Both the position numbers and the translations under genes were made by a program. This document shows, piece by piece, positions 1 to 42,400 of a stretch of DNA of 64,000 bases. The stretch is from contig OZ260664.1 of the NCBI GenBank assembly GCA_965285935.1, forward strand, positions 72,354,001 to 72,418,000, read 5' to 3'. The notes under the pieces were generated by a model. The model was not told where the DNA came from and did no database searches. It saw only the letters and a list, made by a program, of their open reading frames with translations. Position 1 is the first letter of the stretch, and each line of letters opens with the position of its first letter. Source of the stretch: Ophelia neglecta. Its lineage: Eukaryota.

Positions 1-109
1 AATAGTGAAGACATAACAAGGTAGTGATAACACAGCATCAGTGACAACGTACAACCCTTACGGGTATTTATTATGTCTGCAATGTTTTCAACTTCATTGT
101 TAAACCGAC

Positions 110-235
110 CTGTGTCAGAGCTTTGATGGCCGCTTGCTCGTCGATTAACATATCTGCCAGGTTAAATAGCATATCTTCCTGTAAGGAAAGGATGGATTCT
201 TCTTTCACTCCAAGCCCGCACATAAGGGTTATGAC
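110..235 (-). CDS. RdRP coding exon (VITLMCGLGVKEESILSLQEDMLFNLADMLIDEQAAIKALTQ), not in the ORF track
   Basis: Acceptor ATTGCAG at 236 and donor CAG|GTCGGT at 109; 126 bp. Continues the conserved NRQ.I..L..LGV motif. Confidence 0.88.
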
Positions 236-3200
236 CTGCAATGCTTATACTTATGTATTATTCTTCAACGACGAAGGATAGCAAGGAGAGGACGTCAGTC
301 AACATGACTGCAAAAACTCGCTTGGCATAGATGAACATTTCACAGTGAAAAACGCATTATACACAATTCGTGTATGACCTCTTTCACGGAATACCCATAT
401 AGGTAATTAACTGCAAATGTTGAATTTTTCGCAAAACTACAGAAATAGATAAATTTAATAAGGGGCTATATACATTTTATTTCAAGTATAGGGGCATAAA
501 TTTAGAACAGTTTATATTTATTTGACCTTGGAAATGTACAATGTAGATCGAGTACATAAATACCTTTATTGACTATGAATATTTGAACTTTTTACTACAG
601 ACTTAAGGGCATTTTTCATTGGTCATGACCCTAAATTGACGATTAAAATCACTTTATTTTAGTTAAGGTGTTTCCAAAATATTATTTCTCCACTACAATT
701 GTTGTTAAAATTGGCATTCATGAGGCAATAAGGTGAGGACACAATTCAATAACTTTCCTTTAAAAAATGCGTCACCATTGTATCTGTTTCAGTAAATAAT
801 ACCAGATGTTGCGAAAATAAGATAAATGAGCCACAAATCAGCTAATATGGGGATATTTGTACTAGTGATTGATTATTCAAGTCCGTTTTAATAAGAAGAA
901 ATAAAAATGTTTTTCGTTTGGTTTTTAGAATGTGTAATGTCTACATAACAATTTTGAACAAAAAAGCAATATTATTATAAATGCAAAATTTAGGGTCAAG
1001 GAATCATTCCAAAACAAAAGAATTCCCAATAAAGGTGTGTAAGGTCCAAAAAATTTAATCTGTTCTAAATGTGTGCCCCTAAAGCTTGAAGTAAACGATA
1101 TCTAGCCCCTTAAATGGAATTTCAGTGAAATTCTAAATATTAGATTGATACTCAATGTACATTAAATACACTCATCTAGTATTATTCTTCAAGGTCCTAT
1201 AAAACTTGGCTTAACGGTCATTTTACCTGGCGGTTCATAAATAGTGCTCCTGGGTGGGTTGCTTCAATGACTTCTAATTTTGAATGAGAAGATTTAAATT
1301 TCTCCATACTTTCCCGGACACATATCTTTTCTGTTTGGATGGTGGGGTCCATAGCCAGAACTCCTTTGCACCCAGCATATCTTATTTGGAAAGCTGAAGG
1401 CGTAGGATAGAGACCCAAAGTGTTTGAAACCTGAGTAAGAAAGTATAATATTATGGATAATAGGTGGCTGTGTGAGTAGTGAATAAACATTTGATATATT
1501 TGTTTACATATACGAAAACGTTTCAAAACAAAAATGCGGCACGGGTGATGTGTTGTGACGTTTCCACAAAAGAAACTTACCTTATCAGCGAGCGGTTGAG
1601 ATATCTTTCCAATTCCGTCTGTGAAACAATAGGAATTTCTCCCAACGTCAGATATACGCTCGACCATGCCACCCTGGACGTCCACCTCTACTGTGTCTTT
1701 TGTGGATGAGAAACACTGGCCGAGACGAGAGACGTAAGTGGCCACACAACGCTCTCCCACCAGGTCCCCCATCCAGCCCCTTGCTTTTTCAACCCCTCCC
1801 ACTTCTTCTGGTGCATACATCCAAAATCCATGCTCACGAAGCTGACTGTTAGAAGCGGCCAGGAATTGATAATGGCGATTATTGATTGTAATTCCTTGGA
1901 TAAGAACCTTGCGAATCCTATCCAGTGGCTTAGCAAGGCTGTCGGGACCACTGGAGGGAGTCAGTTTCTGGAAGTCTTCATCACGAACAGCAACGCGAAG
2001 GAATCGGTCAGGGCCGTAATGGCGGATGACCCGGTTTTGGATCACTAGTTCGGGTCTCAAGAAGAATGTGGTAGCCGGGGTCATAACCAGCCGGCGTACC
2101 ATGGAAAAGTGCGCAAGAGCAGTTTCTTTCACACAATACAATTCCTTAGCAGTCTTCTGGCTAATCTGGTCAAGCATCGTTTCTAGGCATTGCTCTATGT
2201 TCATCATCAGTCCATCGTCGATGTTATCAGCTAGCTTCAGTAGTATATTTGCTACTTCGGGGTTTTTCTTCTTGAGGCCATCCGATATCATAGAGTAACA
2301 TTTTTCTGTGAGTTGGTCAGTTACTTGGTAGCCTCGGGAGAGGAGACACTCAAGGGCGTAAGAATCATCAAAGCATTCAAATTTTGGTCGCTGTAGATAG
2401 TTAGATGTCTGCATATCTCTTTTAGAAACCCATTTGGGATTCCCATATACAATGGAAAATCCAGTCCTCTCTAACCTGTACAGAGCATCGTTACCGGCCA
2501 TAGCTAACTGAACGTGTATAGCATTTATTTGCCCCAGGCAGCTTTGTTCACAATTGTAGAAGGTGGTGTCTCTATTCCATTGCCTTAGGCTCGTGTCTAT
2601 GCTGACGTTGAACATATCATTTTCAAACTCATCGTCATTGAGATCATAAAATGGCACGCTAAAATCATCTTCTTCATCTGAATCGCTGTTCAGAAAGGTC
2701 TGTTCCTTTTCTGATTGATTATTCCATAGGCTTTCCGAGATTTTCCTGGAGAGTTTTGCCGAGTATATTTTAGGCTGTCTGTTGGTAAAAAAGTACAAAT
2801 CGGCACTCGAGTCCCTGTTGCGCTGATGTACAAGGACTCTAGTGCGAATGCTGTCAAATGGCAACTCCAACTTCCACTCCATACCTTCTGATGGCTGGAG
2901 ATATCGAGCAGTAATGTTTAGCAGTCGAGTATCGAACTCAAGCGTGGTTTTTATCTTCGTACTGTTGTTAATTTCTGGTCGGATTTCTGTGGATGAGTCC
3001 CAATGGCAGAAATATTTGCCAGGAGACACAAAAGCACCCAACGTCAAATGTCTGAAGTTTAGTTCAATTTTTGAAGGCTGATTCCTCCAACCGTCGGAAT
3101 AACGGTAGTCAAATACTCCCCGCGCGATCTCCAGCCACAAAGCACTCCCCTTAGGGATAAGGTTTTGGGACCACTCATTTCTCAACCAACGTGGCCATGA

Positions 3201-3658
3201 CATCTGACTTGGGGCCATCTTACCATCACAGCTTATGAAAACTGTTGCCTCTATGGAATCTACTAACCTAGGATGACCTATGGACGAAGAAAACAATAAT
3301 CGTTGATAGCGTACATGCTATATAACGCACACAGACCATCATACTTGTAAGGTGATGGGTGCATTCAGACGCTGACAATAATTGTTCAAGAGATATTACC
3401 TGTTCCATCAGCTAGTTCTACACCCTGTACCTCCACGGCTGCATGGTCTGCCAGTAGGTTTTGCAGCTGTACTAGAACTTCGTCTTGACCTCCAGTTTTC
3501 TCCAAATTGTGAATAATACAACGAAACTTTATTCTGGTTTGCTTTGTAACCTTTTCATGTTGTTGCTGGTCTGTCCCTGGTTTCAGATTCATGGTCCCAG
3601 GGTCGACTGTGGGACAGCCAGTATTGACCGGATCTGCATTTGATTGTTCAGAGGCCAT
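110..3658 (-). CDS. Cellular (RNAi-type, RDR/EGO-1/RRF-like) RNA-dependent RNA polymerase, 5' part of spliced gene; join 3658-3400, 3277-1581, 1430-1227, 235-110; continues beyond window start
   Basis: The translation carries eukaryotic RdRP motifs: RRLVMTP, NRVIRHY..DRFLRV, YQFLAASNSQLREHGFW, RLGQCFSST, YCFTDGIGKIS, PSAFQIRYAGCKGVL and MNRQVITLMCGLGV. All introns are GT-AG with compatible phases (1, 0, 0), and there are no stops in 762 spliced codons. Confidence 0.95.
462..1109. mobile_element. Non-autonomous DNA transposon (MITE) with long imperfect terminal inverted repeats and TTAA-type flanks (Kolobok-like), in an RdRP intron
   Basis: Left end GGGGCTATATACATTTTATTTCAAGTATAGGGGCATAAATTTAGAACAG matches the reverse complement of the right end, GGGGCTAGATATCGTTTACTTCAAGCTTTAGGGGCACACATTTAGAACAG. 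Further matching blocks are CCTTTATTG and TGACCCTAAATT. Flanks are ATAA (458-461) and TTAA (1110-1113). The superfamily call is inferred. Confidence 0.75.
1227..1430 (-). CDS. RdRP coding exon (VSNTLGLYPTPSAFQIRYAGCKG...MNRQ)
   Basis: Acceptor TTTCTTACTCAG at 1431 and donor CAG|GTAAAA at 1226; 204 bp, phase 0/0. Confidence 0.92.
1581..3277 (-). CDS. RdRP large coding exon (1697 bp)
   Basis: Acceptor TTTTCTTCGTCCATAG and donor GATAAG|GTAAGT at 1580. Encodes the N-terminal region and the start of the RdRP domain, up to DGIGKISQPLADK. Confidence 0.93.
3400..3658 (-). CDS. RdRP first coding exon (MASEQ...ADGT)
   Basis: ATG at 3658. The donor ACAG|GTAATA at 3399 is phase 1 and joins the acceptor CCATAG|GTCAT at 3278 to give G-H-P-R in frame. 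An upstream acceptor TTTCTTTCAG at 3675 implies further 5' UTR exon(s). Confidence 0.8.
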
Positions 3659-5566: not shown

Positions 5567-7950
5567 TAATTGAATTGAATTGAATTTATTTGGCTCAAAT
5601 AATATACAGAAGCAGGCTTAAAATTTAGAAGAGCTTGATACAAAATAGCTTGAGAGCCGAGGAGACCCATGCTAAGGATTTTTAAAAATCCGCTATATGA
5701 AGGCCACCCGGTGCAATAACTCCATTGAATTAACAAGCTTTCTACATATAGTAACTTGAATTTATGAAGAACATCTAAATTTATCAATTATAAATAATAT
5801 AAGATTTCCATAGCAAGCAGAAAGTATGTAAGTTAATTAAGTAAAACTAAATTGCTATGAATAAGAAGAAAAAAACAAAACAAAAAGAAACAATCAGTTA
5901 TAAAGTGAAGAAAAGAAAAAAAATATATATTTATATATAAATCGAAATATATGCCTGTGTGCAACAGCAGTTATATTACAGATGCAATGATTGCATGCAT
6001 GACAATTTGCAGAAATTTTTCCACTTATAATAGCATGAATTTGTGGAAAAAATGTAAATTTAACATATATAAATGATACTGGCAATCAATAGCAAGCAGA
6101 AAGTGTATAAATTAATTTAATAAATAACTGGCTATGAAAAACAATTAGTTATAAAATGAAGAAAAAGGAAGGAAAAAAGAAAGAAAAAAAAATATGCATG
6201 TGCAAACAGCAGTAACATTTCAGGTGCAATGGAGGTGGATGAATAAGCGGATGTAATTATGATGTCATCTAATCTTTAACATTTAATAACATTTATTAAT
6301 GTGACGGAATTAAATAATTTAGGATGCTTGATTATAGTTGATGCATACATCACAATTTACAATCTGACATATATCAGAATAAGAATTGAGATAAAAATGT
6401 TTTATGTAGAGCATATAGCCTTTTAATGAATGGGTGTGAACCTTTTCCAGCATGGATCTGGGTATATTATTCAGTAGAGTTATTATGCTATGTCTGATTG
6501 ACTGATTAACAAACTTATGTCGACTTGATTCTGGATAAAATTTGTGTCGGTATCTTGTGTTGTAAGTGTGTATATCTGAATGAAGTTGAAAAGGATAAGA
6601 TTCAAAATAACCCGGCAACTGATTATTGACAAATTTGAAATAGAATTTCAAAAGGTTCTGATTATAAATGTCCTGAACCTTCAAGAGACCTAACTGTTAA
6701 AATATAGGTTCAGAATGAGAAATATATCTGCTAAAAGAAATTATCCTTACAGCTTTCTTCTGTAAAAGAAATAAGCGAGATGTATTGTGACCCCAGGCCG
6801 AAATGCAATAGGTAAGTTGAGGCTGTATGAGGGTACTGTATAGGGTCTTAAGAATCTTTTGTGGCAGAAAATGTTTTAATTTGTTCAAAATACCAATAGG
6901 TTTAGAATTTTTTGTTGCAATTTTGTTAATATGCGGAGTCCAGGATAAATTCTGGTTAATAGTCAATCCAAGGAAGTTAAATTCATTTACAATTTCAATA
7001 ATAGTACTATTAATTTCAATGATAGGCTTAGCAATTTTGTTCTGCGGGGTATGAAATAGCATAGCTTTAGTCTTATTTACATTTAAAGAAAGTTTATTCA
7101 ACTTCAACCAATCACTCACTTTTGCCAGTTCTCTGTTTATATTGGTGTTGAGGTCAAATGAATTATCAACATTTCGTAGACACTGCAGAGTGGTGCTAAG
7201 AGTAGAATCATCAGCAAATAGTACAAAACTGAACATCTGACTGACCTTGTTAAGGTCATTTATATAAATGATAAATAGTAATGGCCCCGAAACTGACTCT
7301 TGTGGAACACCAGTTGATATATTACGAAAAGAAGAATTTGTTTGATTGTATACAACATACTGTTTGCGTTCAGTAAGGTAATTTTTAAGTAATGCTAGAG
7401 CAGTGTTTGAAAGACCGTAATACTGTAATTTACTAATAAGGATGGAGTGATCAATTGTGTCGAAAGCTTTTGACAAATCCATAAATATACTTAGAGGGAC
7501 GAACCCTTTATCCGTGGCTTGAGTAACTCTATCGACCAATTCTAGAGCGGCCAACTCAATAGAGTGGCCGACTCTAAATCCATACTGACCTTTAAAAAAT
7601 AGTTGATTGTCTTGAAAATAAGCATAAAGCTGGTTGAAGATAGCTTTTTCGAAAACTTTTGATATGGCTGGCAATAAAGAAACTGGTCTATAATTATCTA
7701 AAATTGTATTCACACCCTTTTTAAACAGATGACTTATTTTTGCAATCTTCAGTTTGGATGGAAAAATACCAGATTTAAACGACTGATTAATAATGCACGA
7801 TATTGGAAAAACCAATAAATACTTGGCTTTTTGCAATATCATTGTAGATATGCCATCAAAGCCCGAGCTGGTTTTTGTTTTCAAGTTGGTTATAATGACT
7901 TCTTGGGAAGTAATCTCGCAGAAATTTAGCTGCGTGTTAATCATTATCAT
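5567..7950 (-). mobile_element. 5'-truncated non-LTR retrotransposon (L2/CR1 group, Crack/Daphne-like): RT, C-terminus, 3' UTR and (TTCAA)n tail
   Basis: RT motifs NYRPVSLLPAISKVFEK, QYGFR, MDLSKAFDTIDH, GVPQES.GPLLF and FADDS, followed by a C-terminal C..NC.VC. The 3' end reads AATAAA then (TTCAA)3 at 5567-5590. No endonuclease domain and no clear TSD. Confidence 0.92.
6319..7950 (-). pseudogene. LINE ORF2 (reverse transcriptase) remnant with one in-frame stop
   Basis: ORFs 6697-7950 and 6319-6684 are in the same frame, separated by TAA (6697-6699): HSEPIF*QLGLLKVQDIY. The canonical GVPQGSILGP is altered to GVPQESVSGP. Confidence 0.88.
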
Positions 7951-8332
7951 TTGATCATGTCTACTTAACTCGGAAATTGAACCTTTTCCCGTCTGAATAA
8001 ATTTGATTGTGTTGGAACTTAAAACATTACAGTCAAATAGTAGAACCTTTAACCATATTTCGAATTATCGCTCATGTCATTCTGGCATGACTCATTTTGA
8101 TTTTTATAAGTATAAATATCAATTGCATGCGTCCCTACTTACAATTTCCTATACGTGCAATCCGCAAACAGTTAAAGTATGTTGCACTCCTGACATGATA
8201 ATAATATGCCTAGGCCTTAGACCTAAGTATCTGCATAACATGAAGTAAAGTGAATATATGTGTCAGTGGCAGTCTAGCGTGTAAGCTTAAGCTACTAACA
8301 TAGATATGGCATTGAATGCAGATGTAGTTTAC

Positions 8333-10113: not shown

Positions 10114-11176
10114 TTTTTAAATCGATACAATGGTAAATAGTCATTTTCACTGCAGCAAAATGAAGATTCAGCCCGATTCAGCACCATTACCTACACATGT
10201 GTTTAATCATGTATAATACCTAAATGACAACCAATATGGCAGGGTGATAGCTGAACATTAACATTAGCGTCAAATTGGTTCCTGTTTTCCTATTCGATAT
10301 TCTTCACTTTACTTTCTTTACCAAGTGAGTTCCTGTTTCCCTAGTGAACATTGTTTGGATTCGAGTCAAAAACATACTGTGTCAAAAGTACAGGCATCCT
10401 TTGATGAAGAAGAAATACTATTATGAAAAGTATGATAGAAAACCTTTTGCCCTAAGTTACTAATGGCGGATGTTCACATAGTCCAGAAAGAGCGTTAATG
10501 AGCATTGTTTTTCGGATCTTGGTAAAACATGGTTACTTCATCGGTATGAGAACTTTTTCTCTAAAATGGCTAATTCCTGACAAGATTGACTGGATTATTA
10601 CAAAAGAAGGGTAACAACTGTTTGCTGTGTGTTTATCACCATTATTTATTACTCCATTGTCACACTTCAGTACTAATTTTAGCCATCTCATTTTTTAGTT
10701 ACTACACCCAAACTTTAATAAAGGCACTTCTATAGGGATTTTAAATCACAGGTTTTCCTCAATCTGGTTTTCAACAAAATATGGCATGTTTATGTTTTTT
10801 GTACCAAATTTCTGATACTTTTAAACTAAGTTAGTCTAGTCATCCGAGCGATCCAATTTTTTTTAATTTTATATAGTTTCAGTCACGAGTCATAACCAAA
10901 TCTTACCATGTTACTTTATCATTTAGTACAACGCCCTCCTCTCAGCTTGGGTGCCTGGGTTGACAAACCCCATGAAGAAAAGAAACTTACATTGCGGATC
11001 CCTTGCGCGGGGGACTTTCTGATGGGCATGATTCTCCATTGATGCCTGGCATAGTTTTATGCATATGTATATCCGTGTTATAGTTAGAACTGCGCTCGGT
11101 ATTAGCCACCTTTGGCAGCTGGTTACACTCTCCATTGCTGGTTTTCGTGTATTTTCAAATTATTAAACATTTGATG

Positions 11177-11326
11177 CGCTGTCGTACAAGTACCCTAGCG
11201 CGGATGCTCTCCAATGGCAACTCCAACTTTCCCTCGAAGCCTTCTGATGGTTGCAAATATCGACCAGTTGTGTTGAGTAGTCGAGTATCGAATGCGAACG
11301 TGGTGAGTATTTCCGTACTACTGTTA
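11177..11326 (-). pseudogene. Fragment of a diverged RdRP paralog (matches 2821-2970)
   Basis: Ungapped alignment of 118/150 nt by manual count. It translates as NSSTEILTTFAFDTRLLNTTGRYLQPSEGFEGKLELPLESIRARVLVRQR versus NNSTKIKTTLEFDTRLLNITARYLQPSEGMEWKLELPFDSIRTRVLVHQR in the gene. An in-frame TGA follows 6 codons later. Confidence 0.9.
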
Positions 11327-11536
11327 TACGACGAACGTTGTCAGACATCTTTGGCCCCACCACTTTTTCTCGATATATTTCATTGCGTTATGAACAAAAA
11401 TGCAAACAATGCAAATATGGTTTTAAATTGATCATTAAACAATAAAAGCATAAATTAATGTATGTAATTATTTTAAGCAGTTGTTTCCAAATTCGTTTTT
11501 CAATATAAATCAGGATCAAGGTAGCTCCTGGCATTC

Positions 11537-39400: not shown

Positions 39401-42400
39401 CAACGGGGTTGTGTTACCCTATGGTTTAAAATTGGTGGGACCTTTCGGCCAGCGGTGTTTATATTCTTACACAATTATAACATATAAAAATCTCTTATAA
39501 CCGTCTCGGCATCTGAATTAAACCATAATTCAACTGTAGATTTCTGTCTAAGATAATACTTTTTTCATGGTTAAAGTCCAGATACTTCCAGCAATAAAAA
39601 CACTTGCCTCTGTCATGTAAAACTAATTACCATGTTCGTTTTTGTTGGACACAATTACAGAACAAATGCTGGCCAAACGTGATATTTATCAATGGACATG
39701 AGTGTCTTTAAATTGGGTAGTGTATGTCTTATTCAAGATAAATTATATATATTATATGTAACTGGCTTCCCCAAAAAAGAATATCGAAATATCGGCCTAC
39801 CTTGATAATTCATTTGTTTTTCCATCGTGCAACCCTTTGTCTGAAATGCACAGATAACAACATTACAATTACAATACGATTAGAGAATATAATCATTTAA
39901 TTACTTCTATATAGTGCAACTGCAGAGACCCAAGATTTTTTATTCTCTTTATGAGCTCCCTCTGTTAAGTATTTATTTATTATTATCAACTTACTGGCGC
40001 CAGTGGAGTAAAATTTATATTCGTTCTGACGGGTCGGTTATTTAGAGGCATGGGTCGCCGATAGTTATTTTCGATGCCGACCTTTGGGCTTTCTTCGTCC
40101 CCTTGCATAAGTTCCCGCATAAGCATCATCTTAAATATATAATTGTTAAATTTTATGTTTAATTAGGTTATTTCAAATCAGCGTTAAACGCTGAGATAGA
40201 CATAGTGGTTTGCACGCATAATTAAAGTGTCTTCTTCAATCTCTTGGTGTAATAAATAGTGACAGAAACAAATGTGACACCTAAAAAGACAATAAATTGG
40301 TCAACCTACGTGTTCGTATGTGATGTATATCGGTTTATTTATTACCACCCATGTAACTGTTTCGTGGCACCCAGGTTGCGTGAGAGACCCCTCGTAGGTC
40401 AGGTAGTCCGTAGTTGGCGGAAACAGACCTGCTATTGATATATGACGGATGCGTGTTTGTTGACCTGAAAGATGCAGGAATTCGTTTATCAAAGGGCGCG
40501 TATGATTTGTCTACAAAACATCACCCAACGTAACGCTGCCTTCTATTTTGGCATCTGATTGAATTAAGAATGAGCTCATAAGCATGTTTATTTTCACTCA
40601 TAGTGCTATGACACTGTAGAATCAGAGATGTTTTTTATGGCAGCGCTCACACCATTTCTTTATTTAAAGCAGGTAATTTATCATGTACTAATATCATGTT
40701 TAACTTTATTAACTTGTAAAATATAAGTTAGTTTAAAGTTACCTACCTCTGTATCTGACTTGTTTTAAATTTTGAGCAATTATATCAAATTCCTGGTTTG
40801 GCCTGTTGCCTATCTGTAAATATAGATACACTTAAAATGTCAAATCGCCTTAAGGCCGGATCACACTGACCAAAAGTCGCGTAAACGCATGAATCACGCA
40901 CAAATTTCGAGCCTTACGCGATACATCCGCGATTTGCGCATTTCATCAGTGTTTCTGACGTGGAGCCTCCGTAGTTGTCCGTCGATGTTTGCCGGATCGG
41001 TGCTTTACGCGATTCCAGGTTTTAAACAGCTCAAAACTCGGCTTCACGTAAGAATTTACTAAATAGAATTCTGTATCCAAAATTGAAAATATGAATGAAC
41101 AGGACGGTATTAATTGGCGAAGACGCTATATCCTTACCTGCGCTAGAATTCCAACCATTGCCAAACCATAGGCTGAATACAGTGACTGAGTCATATTGCC
41201 ATACAAGTCTGTGTTGTACCCTATTATCTGGATCTTAAATGAAAGAAGAAAGAAATGCATTTATTTAATGTTTGCATGCATTAAAAGCAAGATATTAATA
41301 CATTTTTTTTTTCGTACAAGCTTTCATACTATATGTCATATTTATAGAAGCACTTTTTCTAAGCCAAAATACTGACCACAACGATCAGTGGAGCAATGGG
41401 TCAGAAACGCCACTCCCTGACTAGTTAGTACTAAATGGTTATACCACTGAATATGTATGTATGACGTTTAAAATAGACGCCCCAAAATCCGTTCTTTTCA
41501 GCTTTCTAACAGTTCGTATAGTCATGGAATTGACTGATTTTTATGTAAGCCTGCAATTGCGCTTAGGCGGCGGCGTCGAACTAAGCTAGCATATTGTTGG
41601 CATATTTCTGACAGGTGTTTGTATTGGATTGGTATATATTTGCTACGAGGTAAGGGTCACGATGACTAGAAAATCCTAGACTGACAACGGACTCATCGTT
41701 ATTTGGCCGCATGTATTGCGTCATTAATTAGATTTAATGATTTCAAGGGTAAATGTTTATTAAAATAGTGAATATTTTTTTGCAAGAGAAGGCATCCCGT
41801 CATTCCTGTCTGTTCGGATATTCCTTCATTGCATTGTTTTCCTATATAACGACTCAAAATAGGTTGAATCGTACAAAAACAACACAAATACCTCAATACT
41901 CATATTGGATTATCTGGCATTTTCCTCCTTGATAAATCATCACGTTAAATATAATGAAACATACCTCTGCTGGAAAGGATTTTCCGTCTATTGTGTGCTC
42001 GGAGCCGAGGCTGTCAATGCTGCCAAAATGAAGTATGACCTCGGCGATACGGTATTGGTAGATAAACGAACCTCCCGAGATGTTGATGTAGTGCGGACTG
42101 GGTTCGTCTAATACAAGCTTAATGTCATGGCCAGTGTTGATCAAATTGCCACTTATCTGAAAGTATGAGTTGTTGTGCAATTAAATGGAAGTCATCGGTC
42201 ATACAAAAAGTTGACCATTTAAGGTACTTATTCCATGAAGTGCAATCACCTAGAAAAAAGCGTATGAATGTGGCACCAAGGGTAAGCAAGACCGATATTA
42301 TATCTTGGTCACCTTTCTCATGGAACGATAGTAGTTGACATCTTGCATTTGTAACGTAATTCCTACGTGTCCATGACTTCTAGAAAAAGACAGACGCAGC

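Follow-up and report, generated by a model that had tools for sequence, protein, structure and literature searches.

An intact RNA-dependent RNA polymerase gene of Ophelia neglecta with a predicted nucleotidyltransferase, KH and triphosphate-tunnel tail

A stretch of 64,000 nucleotides of the Ophelia neglecta genome (the window, G000:C7:72354001-72418000, on a contig of 110 Mb within an assembly of 762 Mb) holds at its left end, on the minus strand, the first four exons of a gene for an RdRP (RNA-dependent RNA polymerase). A first-pass annotation made from the window had claimed 762 uninterrupted spliced codons with canonical introns, and both were reproduced from the exon lengths and intron ends: the four exons join into exactly 762 stop-free codons, and the introns between them (122, 150 and 991 nt) all run from GT to AG. 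To the left of the window the gene passes through a 204-nt GT-AG intron into a last exon of 3,708 nt, and the complete gene consists of five exons encoding 1,997 amino acids (aa) with a single terminal stop. Its parts, with positions in the window unless a contig is named, are as follows, the domains of exon 5 being predicted.

3400..3658, minus strand: exon 1 (259 nt), ATG at 3658, aa 1-86, within the N-terminal stretch aa 1-150
3278..3399, minus strand: intron 1, 122 nt, GT-AG, phase 1
1581..3277, minus strand: exon 2 (1697 nt), aa 87-652, with PH-like barrel, helical bundle and onset of the RdRP domain (aa 486, window 2081)
2424..3086, minus strand: PH-like domain of the plant RDR1/RDR2 kind, aa ~151-371
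2616..2684, minus strand: acidic tract D285-D307, a low-confidence loop within the PH-like domain
1431..1580, minus strand: intron 2, 150 nt, phase 0, matching the paralogue at G000:C5:56.75 Mb in position and phase
1227..1430, minus strand: exon 3 (204 nt), aa 653-720, RdRP domain
236..1226, minus strand: intron 3, 991 nt, phase 0
110..235, minus strand: exon 4 (126 nt), aa 721-762, RdRP domain
1..109, minus strand: first 109 of the 204 nt of intron 4; the gene continues outside the window
G000:C7:72353905-72350198 (L004:6198-9905), minus strand: exon 5, aa 763-1997, with DLDGD (902-906), RdRP head (to ~1205), degenerate nucleotidyltransferase (~1235-1532), KH (1534-1613), and triphosphate-tunnel barrel (~1621-1997) with an Arg/Gly loop (~1745-1770)

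The first-pass annotation had called for an intact DxDGD motif in the adjacent sequence and for a search against the Pfam RdRP family. The DLDGD catalytic loop was found in exon 5 at aa 902-906, at the identical position in both copies of the gene (the second is described below), and the Pfam family PF05183 matched exon 2 (E 3e-42) and exon 3 (E 3e-18), and three exon pieces, at 145, 66 and 314 bits, all passed the family cut-off of 23.8. At the sequence level the downstream exon showed no stop, frameshift or loss of DxDGD. There is hardly any doubt that the gene is an intact cellular RdRP by identity. No RNA run was listed among the sequencing runs that contain the sequence; three contig sets of one sample contained it unspliced, with no exon joints.

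The gene had been judged a host gene rather than a viral insert or contaminant, and this judgement was borne out by the DLDGD loop, the introns, the 110-Mb contig, the intron shared with a paralogue and the nearest named relatives of the RdRP, which are invertebrate RdRPs. Intron 2 interrupts the same codon in the same phase in the paralogue at C5:56.75 Mb, which is only 41% identical; this is what a host gene of some age should show. On the strength of the introns, the contig, the common intron and the invertebrate relatives, a viral insert or contaminant was rejected. The neighbour that the first-pass annotation took for a metazoan CA10/CA11-like gene was recovered at family level, as a carbonic anhydrase exon at window 41896-42180 (PF00194, E 2.5e-14).

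A second intact five-exon copy is present at G000:C7:72335699-72328269, about 22 kb off in the same orientation, with 96.7% aa identity. The two copies differ by 78.5 synonymous and 69.5 non-synonymous changes (synonymous divergence, dS, 0.063; non-synonymous divergence, dN, 0.015; ratio 0.24), with a dN/dS of 0.29 in the region of the C-terminal barrel, and purifying selection acts between them. The second copy could be a haplotype assembled in tandem and no true paralogue, as the divergence of the copies (introns 4-5%, dS 0.06) lies in a range that heterozygosity can attain in marine invertebrates. However, no assembly gap separates the copies, flank identity drops to ~85%, and short-read contigs span both ends of the junction region, though repeats block one single path; we consider a haplotype rather unlikely. 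Between the copies, L005:7914-9785 is a very high-copy repeat whose summed contig depth lies three to four orders of magnitude above its flanks. An isolated 54-codon relic of RdRP exon 2 (window 11176-11337, minus strand, 70% aa identity) is likely the leftover of an older duplication.

Over the whole genome the RdRP profile gave 14 matches at four loci, namely the two tandem copies, C5:56.75 Mb and C5:112.9 Mb. The fourth RdRP, on the plus strand at G000:C5:56,747,167-56,752,532 (L014), has DLDGD; its introns are more numerous, and its tail is shorter and lacks the barrel. It adjoins a myosin heavy-chain cluster, and the muscle myosin exon beside it scored best against the scallop myosin-head entries 1dfk/1b7t, in keeping with a host among the non-arthropod invertebrates. 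The divergent RdRP at G000:C5:112,884,245-112,896,845 (L020, L021; minus strand) carries DLDGD in a small exon and is followed on the same strand by pieces of a superfamily 1 helicase (AAA_11, AAA_12); this locus is likely an RdRP-helicase fusion resembling amphioxus BL02069. Directly upstream of it are Mab-21/cGAS-like and ankyrin open reading frames.

The N-terminal region of about 470 aa had been regarded as unexplained by the catalytic domain. Save for aa 1-150, it is mostly an ordinary RDR2-type PH-like and helical region (aa 154-632). The structure model of exon 2 had a predicted local distance difference test score (pLDDT) of 78.5 and matched plant RDR2 in Foldseek (E 9e-20), and a second aligner placed aa 154-632 on maize RDR2 over 384 residues (Z 21.7; root-mean-square deviation, rmsd, 3.9). 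The PH-like domain was matched to plant RDR1 by HHalign with a probability of 97.6%, PH folds were matched at model positions 64-284, and a PF25359 match in the same region (E 8e-5) lay beneath the family cut-off. Such a PH-like barrel with a helical bundle is known from RDR2 and nematode RRF-3, according to passages of PMC13650160. The acidic tract D285-D307, likewise put forward as an unexplained feature, is a local insert absent from most relatives: it forms a loop inserted in the PH-like domain (pLDDT < 50 at model 203-214) and is wholly gapped in 8/10 relatives shown. For aa 1-150, HHalign against the plant RDR1 N-terminus gave no match (probability 1%); an RRM at aa 31-150 was considered, and exon 1 lay outside the folded model of the N-terminal region.

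Plant RDR2 and RDR1 (PDB 7w84, 7eu0, 7roz) thus resemble the Ophelia protein in the PH-like and helical N-terminal region, the two-barrel core with DLDGD and the head domain. They differ in what follows. Of the 120 RdRP matches listed, 97 are non-plant and 23 plant; 21 of the 23 plant matches stop 255-345 aa after the DLDGD motif, whereas the Ophelia protein extends 1,095 aa beyond it. The additional C-terminal tail of ~800 aa, which is what makes the protein unusual, lies outside the window that the first-pass annotation had seen.

The tail model (aa 1193-1997) had a mean pLDDT of 76.5, mostly 75-98 over the KH domain and barrel. The six best PDB matches of the tail in Foldseek were all trypanosome RESC1/RESC2 (E 5.9e-11 to 2.3e-8), followed by yeast Cet1 (8.5e-5) and other tunnel enzymes. 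An aligner independent of Foldseek, run over 48,161 chains, gave the same order, with RESC2 at Z 20.9 (rmsd 3.1, 240 aligned), RESC1 at Z 20.9 and Cet1 at Z 15.8. Viral structure matches to the barrel were mostly triphosphatases of capping enzymes, with weaker E-values. Ahead of the barrel, the C-lobe of the nucleotidyltransferase (aa 1355-1532) aligned with CutA, TUT1, Trf4 and GLD-2 at Z 9.6-9.8 in the structure aligner, and the KH segment (aa 1534-1613) aligned with the Nova-1 KH at Z 8.8 (rmsd 2.8, 74 aligned), three more KH entries giving Z 7.9-8.2. Sequence profiles pointed in similar directions: the whole-protein family profile matched GLD-2 over the tail columns (E 1.4e-7), the tails of relatives gave MTPAP-like matches, and RESC1 ranked first for the barrel profile among 177,635 PDB sequences, at a non-significant E of 0.069. 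A search of the ESM Atlas returned no usable match. On these models the barrel is almost certainly of the triphosphate-tunnel (TTM/CYTH) fold, and the tail as a whole is predicted to combine a GLD-2/TUTase-like nucleotidyltransferase in degenerate form with a KH domain and with a triphosphate-tunnel barrel that most resembles RESC1/RESC2.

The likeness to RESC1/RESC2 (PDB 8cdp, 8fn4, 8fn6) extends to the N-terminal strands ahead of the tunnel barrel, the loss of the metal glutamates and a putative basic lining, although identity is only 11-15% and RESC1/RESC2 form a free mitochondrial heterodimer, whereas the barrel here is fused to a polymerase. Cet1/Pct1 and the RNA triphosphatases of giant viruses have the same fold (Z 11-16) and differ by the motif-a ExE, which is absent here. 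Nucleotidyltransferases of the GLD-2/TENT/TUTase type share the two-lobe fold, placed here straight after the RdRP head. They differ in their catalytic residues: FGS is kept in the family, Ser/Thr replaces the first catalytic Asp in many relatives, and GS and both Asp are gone in both Ophelia copies. The TENT/TUTase pattern hG[GS]x(7-14)DxD is absent from both copies and matches 5/65 relatives, as we read it only P0130 clearly in place; since P0130 keeps GS and DxD intact, tailing activity may persist in part of the family. The GxxG loop of the KH domain was found in 0/86 relatives. All three tail domains look non-catalytic or non-canonical.

In the barrel, R-x-I stands in place of the E-x-E of Cet1 motif a; 0/101 relatives have both acids and 12 have one, and the third metal position is Glu in 4/92, the Cet1 motif register having been set by the conserved FG, the strand ends and the known Cet1 motifs rather than by coordinates. 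Because the Cet1-type ExE is absent, we predict that the barrel is very probably catalytically inactive. Were the barrel instead an RNA 5'-phosphatase, active through a rewired metal site (E1943, E1962, D1858, D1846) and trimming the polymerase's own products, the failure to find triphosphate small RNAs in these animals would be accounted for, and several acidic positions are indeed kept (E1962 91/94, E1943 88/96, D1858 89/108, with E1966 present in both copies), the next structure matches after RESC being active RNA triphosphatases. However, tunnel RNA triphosphatases yield diphosphate, not monophosphate, and the motif-a and third-position counts speak against a metal site. Passages of bioRxiv 10.1101/2023.02.01.526499 also state that loss of any one metal glutamate inactivates Cet1-type enzymes, and we regard a phosphatase as very improbable.

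What the barrel does retain are basic residues. Arg or Lys is near-invariant at R1860 (108/108), R1912 (104/107), K1914 (98/108), K1841 (99/110) and R1960 (90/96), and a loop with a net charge of at least +4 is present in 77/98 rows. The barrel could instead be an inert RESC1- or Med18-like scaffold, and the tail a fused module for complex assembly, with Dicer, Argonaute, a helicase or a nucleotidyltransferase that is active as partners; this is a possibility that we take seriously, though we lean to doubt it. It would agree with the equal Z of RESC1 and RESC2, with two RESC2 ligand positions that are non-basic in the family, with the degenerate look of all three tail domains, and with RdRP-nucleotidyltransferase complexes, which are known with S. 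pombe Cid12 and Tetrahymena Rdn1/2. Against it, the Arg/Lys residues are near-invariant on the polar faces of the barrel strands across relatives of ~25% identity, for which a bound phosphate is the easier explanation.

The barrel is shared by many non-plant RdRPs. Its profile reached at least 25 bits in 69/97 non-plant matches and 0/23 plant matches, a count that is partly circular because the alignment behind the profile contains most of the 69; four proteins outside this alignment scored 104-150 bits. DLDGD is kept in all 69 barrel-bearing matches. A full HMMER search with the tail found 72 proteins among 1.84 billion representatives, and the last ~500 aa are conserved, the tail retrieving many of the 120 listed RdRP matches. 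A word-index search with the tail alone gave 0/7,998 candidates at E<=0.001, a limit of sensitivity since HMMER had found 72. The search with the barrel alignment for stand-alone relatives gave 1/5,438 candidates, already within the alignment. The barrel-only records P0172, P0174 and P0178 may be free proteins or last exons.

Named barrel carriers include two Branchiostoma species, scallops, oysters, Tegillarca, Pinctada, Nematostella, Acropora (partial, 26 bits) and a Caulerpa record. The same architecture, barrel included, is found in long RdRPs, as yet uncharacterised, from Branchiostoma floridae/belcheri, Pecten, Ylistrum, Ostrea, Crassostrea and Nematostella (P0002, P0005, P0010, P0014, P0017, P0023, P0012), which are 46-53% identical to the Ophelia protein in the C-half of the RdRP; they are annotated just as RdRP or RdRP with head, with no barrel among the Pfam matches listed. 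Mid-length deuterostome RdRPs (Saccoglossus, Ptychodera, Glandiceps, Amphiura and other Branchiostoma paralogues) have weaker nucleotidyltransferase-like and KH-like segments (the DUF7752 region) after the RdRP and differ in that they mostly stop ~520-680 aa after DLDGD; hemichordate, echinoderm and other amphioxus RdRPs end ahead of the barrel. A quick tree of 110 rows placed the two copies in a starred group of 37 rows and spread the barrel carriers over several non-plant branches. This tree left out 19 rows (17 plants, one near-duplicate and one short), its rows included no named nematode, fungal or RDR6 RdRP, and its deep order is unreliable owing to long branches and an arbitrary outgroup.

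Some carriers depart from the common architecture. The green-algal record P0153 (Caulerpa lentillifera, EukProt) combines RdRP and barrel without keeping R1912/K1914, and may reflect ancient origin, transfer or contamination. P0169 (2,438 aa) runs from an N-terminal DEAD/Helicase_C region through a central RdRP to a C-terminal barrel of the same kind, and Acropora P0089 also carries Helicase_C.

Taken together, the preferred reading is that the non-catalytic barrel may bind 5'-triphosphate RNA ends, a proposal drawn from models and from analogy to RESC2 for which we see the case as evenly balanced. Passages of bioRxiv 10.1101/2023.02.01.526499 report that RESC2 lacks two of three metal glutamates and that its RNA binding requires a 5'-triphosphate, and RESC2 has been proposed there, and in parts of the review PMC12936278, as a protective 5'-end binder. 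Direct RdRP products bear 5'-triphosphates (passages of PMC6396948). The Ophelia RdRP core would start RNA chains without a primer and so give 5'-triphosphate products, as established for nematode RdRPs, and the barrel would hold the triphosphate end of the product in cis, both shielding it much as a cap does and serving as a handle, in the manner of RESC2 with guide RNAs. The likely inactive nucleotidyltransferase, the KH fold and the Arg/Gly loop could assist in gripping the template. With the product end held in cis, long duplexes would be likelier products than free 22-mers. In a second form of the same mechanism, the barrel would select uncapped templates, viral or RNA polymerase III (Pol III) RNA.

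Several observations weigh against this reading. The N-lobe of the nucleotidyltransferase was modelled poorly (pLDDT < 50 at model 99-172), and the one Pfam match of the tail, to RESC1_2 (PF25477), scored 16.6 bits (E 0.0039) against a cut-off of 27. The tunnel-facing side chains were assigned by strand alternation rather than from coordinates, and a family Lys (K/R in 83/108) is Ala1862 in both copies. Mediator subunits, which are regarded as pure scaffolds, share the barrel fold in both structure searches. Two of the four basic gamma-phosphate ligands of RESC2 could be placed, by the sole alignment obtained, a weak one to RESC1: the equivalent of K311 is mostly Thr/Ser (Lys in 9/106) and that of R359 mostly Gln/His (85/109), both mostly non-basic in the family, R402/R424 being unplaced; other invariant Arg/Lys residues are close by. 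According to parts of bioRxiv 10.1101/2023.02.01.526499, RESC2 binding needs K311 together with R402, and RESC1, with Ser and Asp there, is inert. Passages of PMC10062562 describe tick RdRP1 small RNAs as deriving from Pol III transcripts; this link was set aside, as the reading frames of tick RdRP1 and RdRP3, 4,320 and 4,416 nt long by the primer names of the supplement, probably leave no room for the barrel.

The Ophelia polymerase could also be an ordinary nematode-like amplifier of short secondary small interfering RNAs (siRNAs), with an incidental tail. The catalytic core is intact, the genome gave 21 matches to the Piwi domain, at five loci or more, and one to the Dicer dimerisation domain, and tick RdRPs support 22-nt RNAs, those of RdRP1 being 5'-monophosphate 22-mers in passages of PMC10062562. 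However, in passages of PMC6396948, amphioxus (B. lanceolatum) has intact, expressed RdRP genes and no RdRP-type siRNAs even in mono-/polyphosphate-end libraries. One Branchiostoma RdRP class bears the same tail, and a tail retained all the way from cnidarians to chordates is not incidental; an ordinary amplifier appears unlikely. A wider form of the triphosphate-binding reading is offered only tentatively: an old, unrecognised RdRP class in cnidarians, bivalves, amphioxus and perhaps beyond animals would possess its own 5'-triphosphate sensor, with which it picks uncapped viral/Pol III RNA or caps its own products, supplying Dicer or RIG-I-like receptors with long double-stranded RNA.

Mobile elements surround the two copies. 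A LINE-type (long interspersed nuclear element) reverse transcriptase open reading frame (PF00078) lies upstream of the RdRP gene at window 6697-8064, minus strand. Directly downstream of the second copy is a young long terminal repeat (LTR) retrotransposon (G000:C7:72,315,703-72,323,855; L007, L006), with 561-bp LTRs that are 99.8% identical and with protease, reverse transcriptase, RNase H and integrase.

The RdRP family itself is known and an invertebrate RdRP is unsurprising: passages of PMC6396948 describe animal RdRP genes as widespread yet patchy, part of PMC8476169 names Nematostella RdRP1-3 in its section on the poly(I:C) response, and the part of 10.64898/2026.07.10.737666 that we consulted reports RdRP as absent from four snail genomes. 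The nucleotidyltransferase-KH-tunnel tail on an RdRP is apparently undescribed. AAA_12 is the only extra RdRP domain named in the passages of PMC6396948, and a search that left most subscription papers uncovered found no title or abstract opening on an RdRP that carries a CYTH, tunnel or RESC-like domain. The tail domain may already have a newer Pfam or InterPro entry.

A conserved tunnel domain (~380 aa, with a few invariant residues) on the RdRP chain provides a concrete handle on what RdRPs do in non-nematode animals, a handle that applies to oyster, scallop, amphioxus and Nematostella proteins and thus to tractable species. The RESC1/2-like barrel, described until now from RNA editing in kinetoplastids, is thereby carried over to enzymes of RNA silencing. 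If the barrel is a triphosphate sensor, non-nematode animal RdRPs would act outside classical siRNA amplification, and the finding would point to a common origin with the trypanosome guide-RNA binders RESC1/2.

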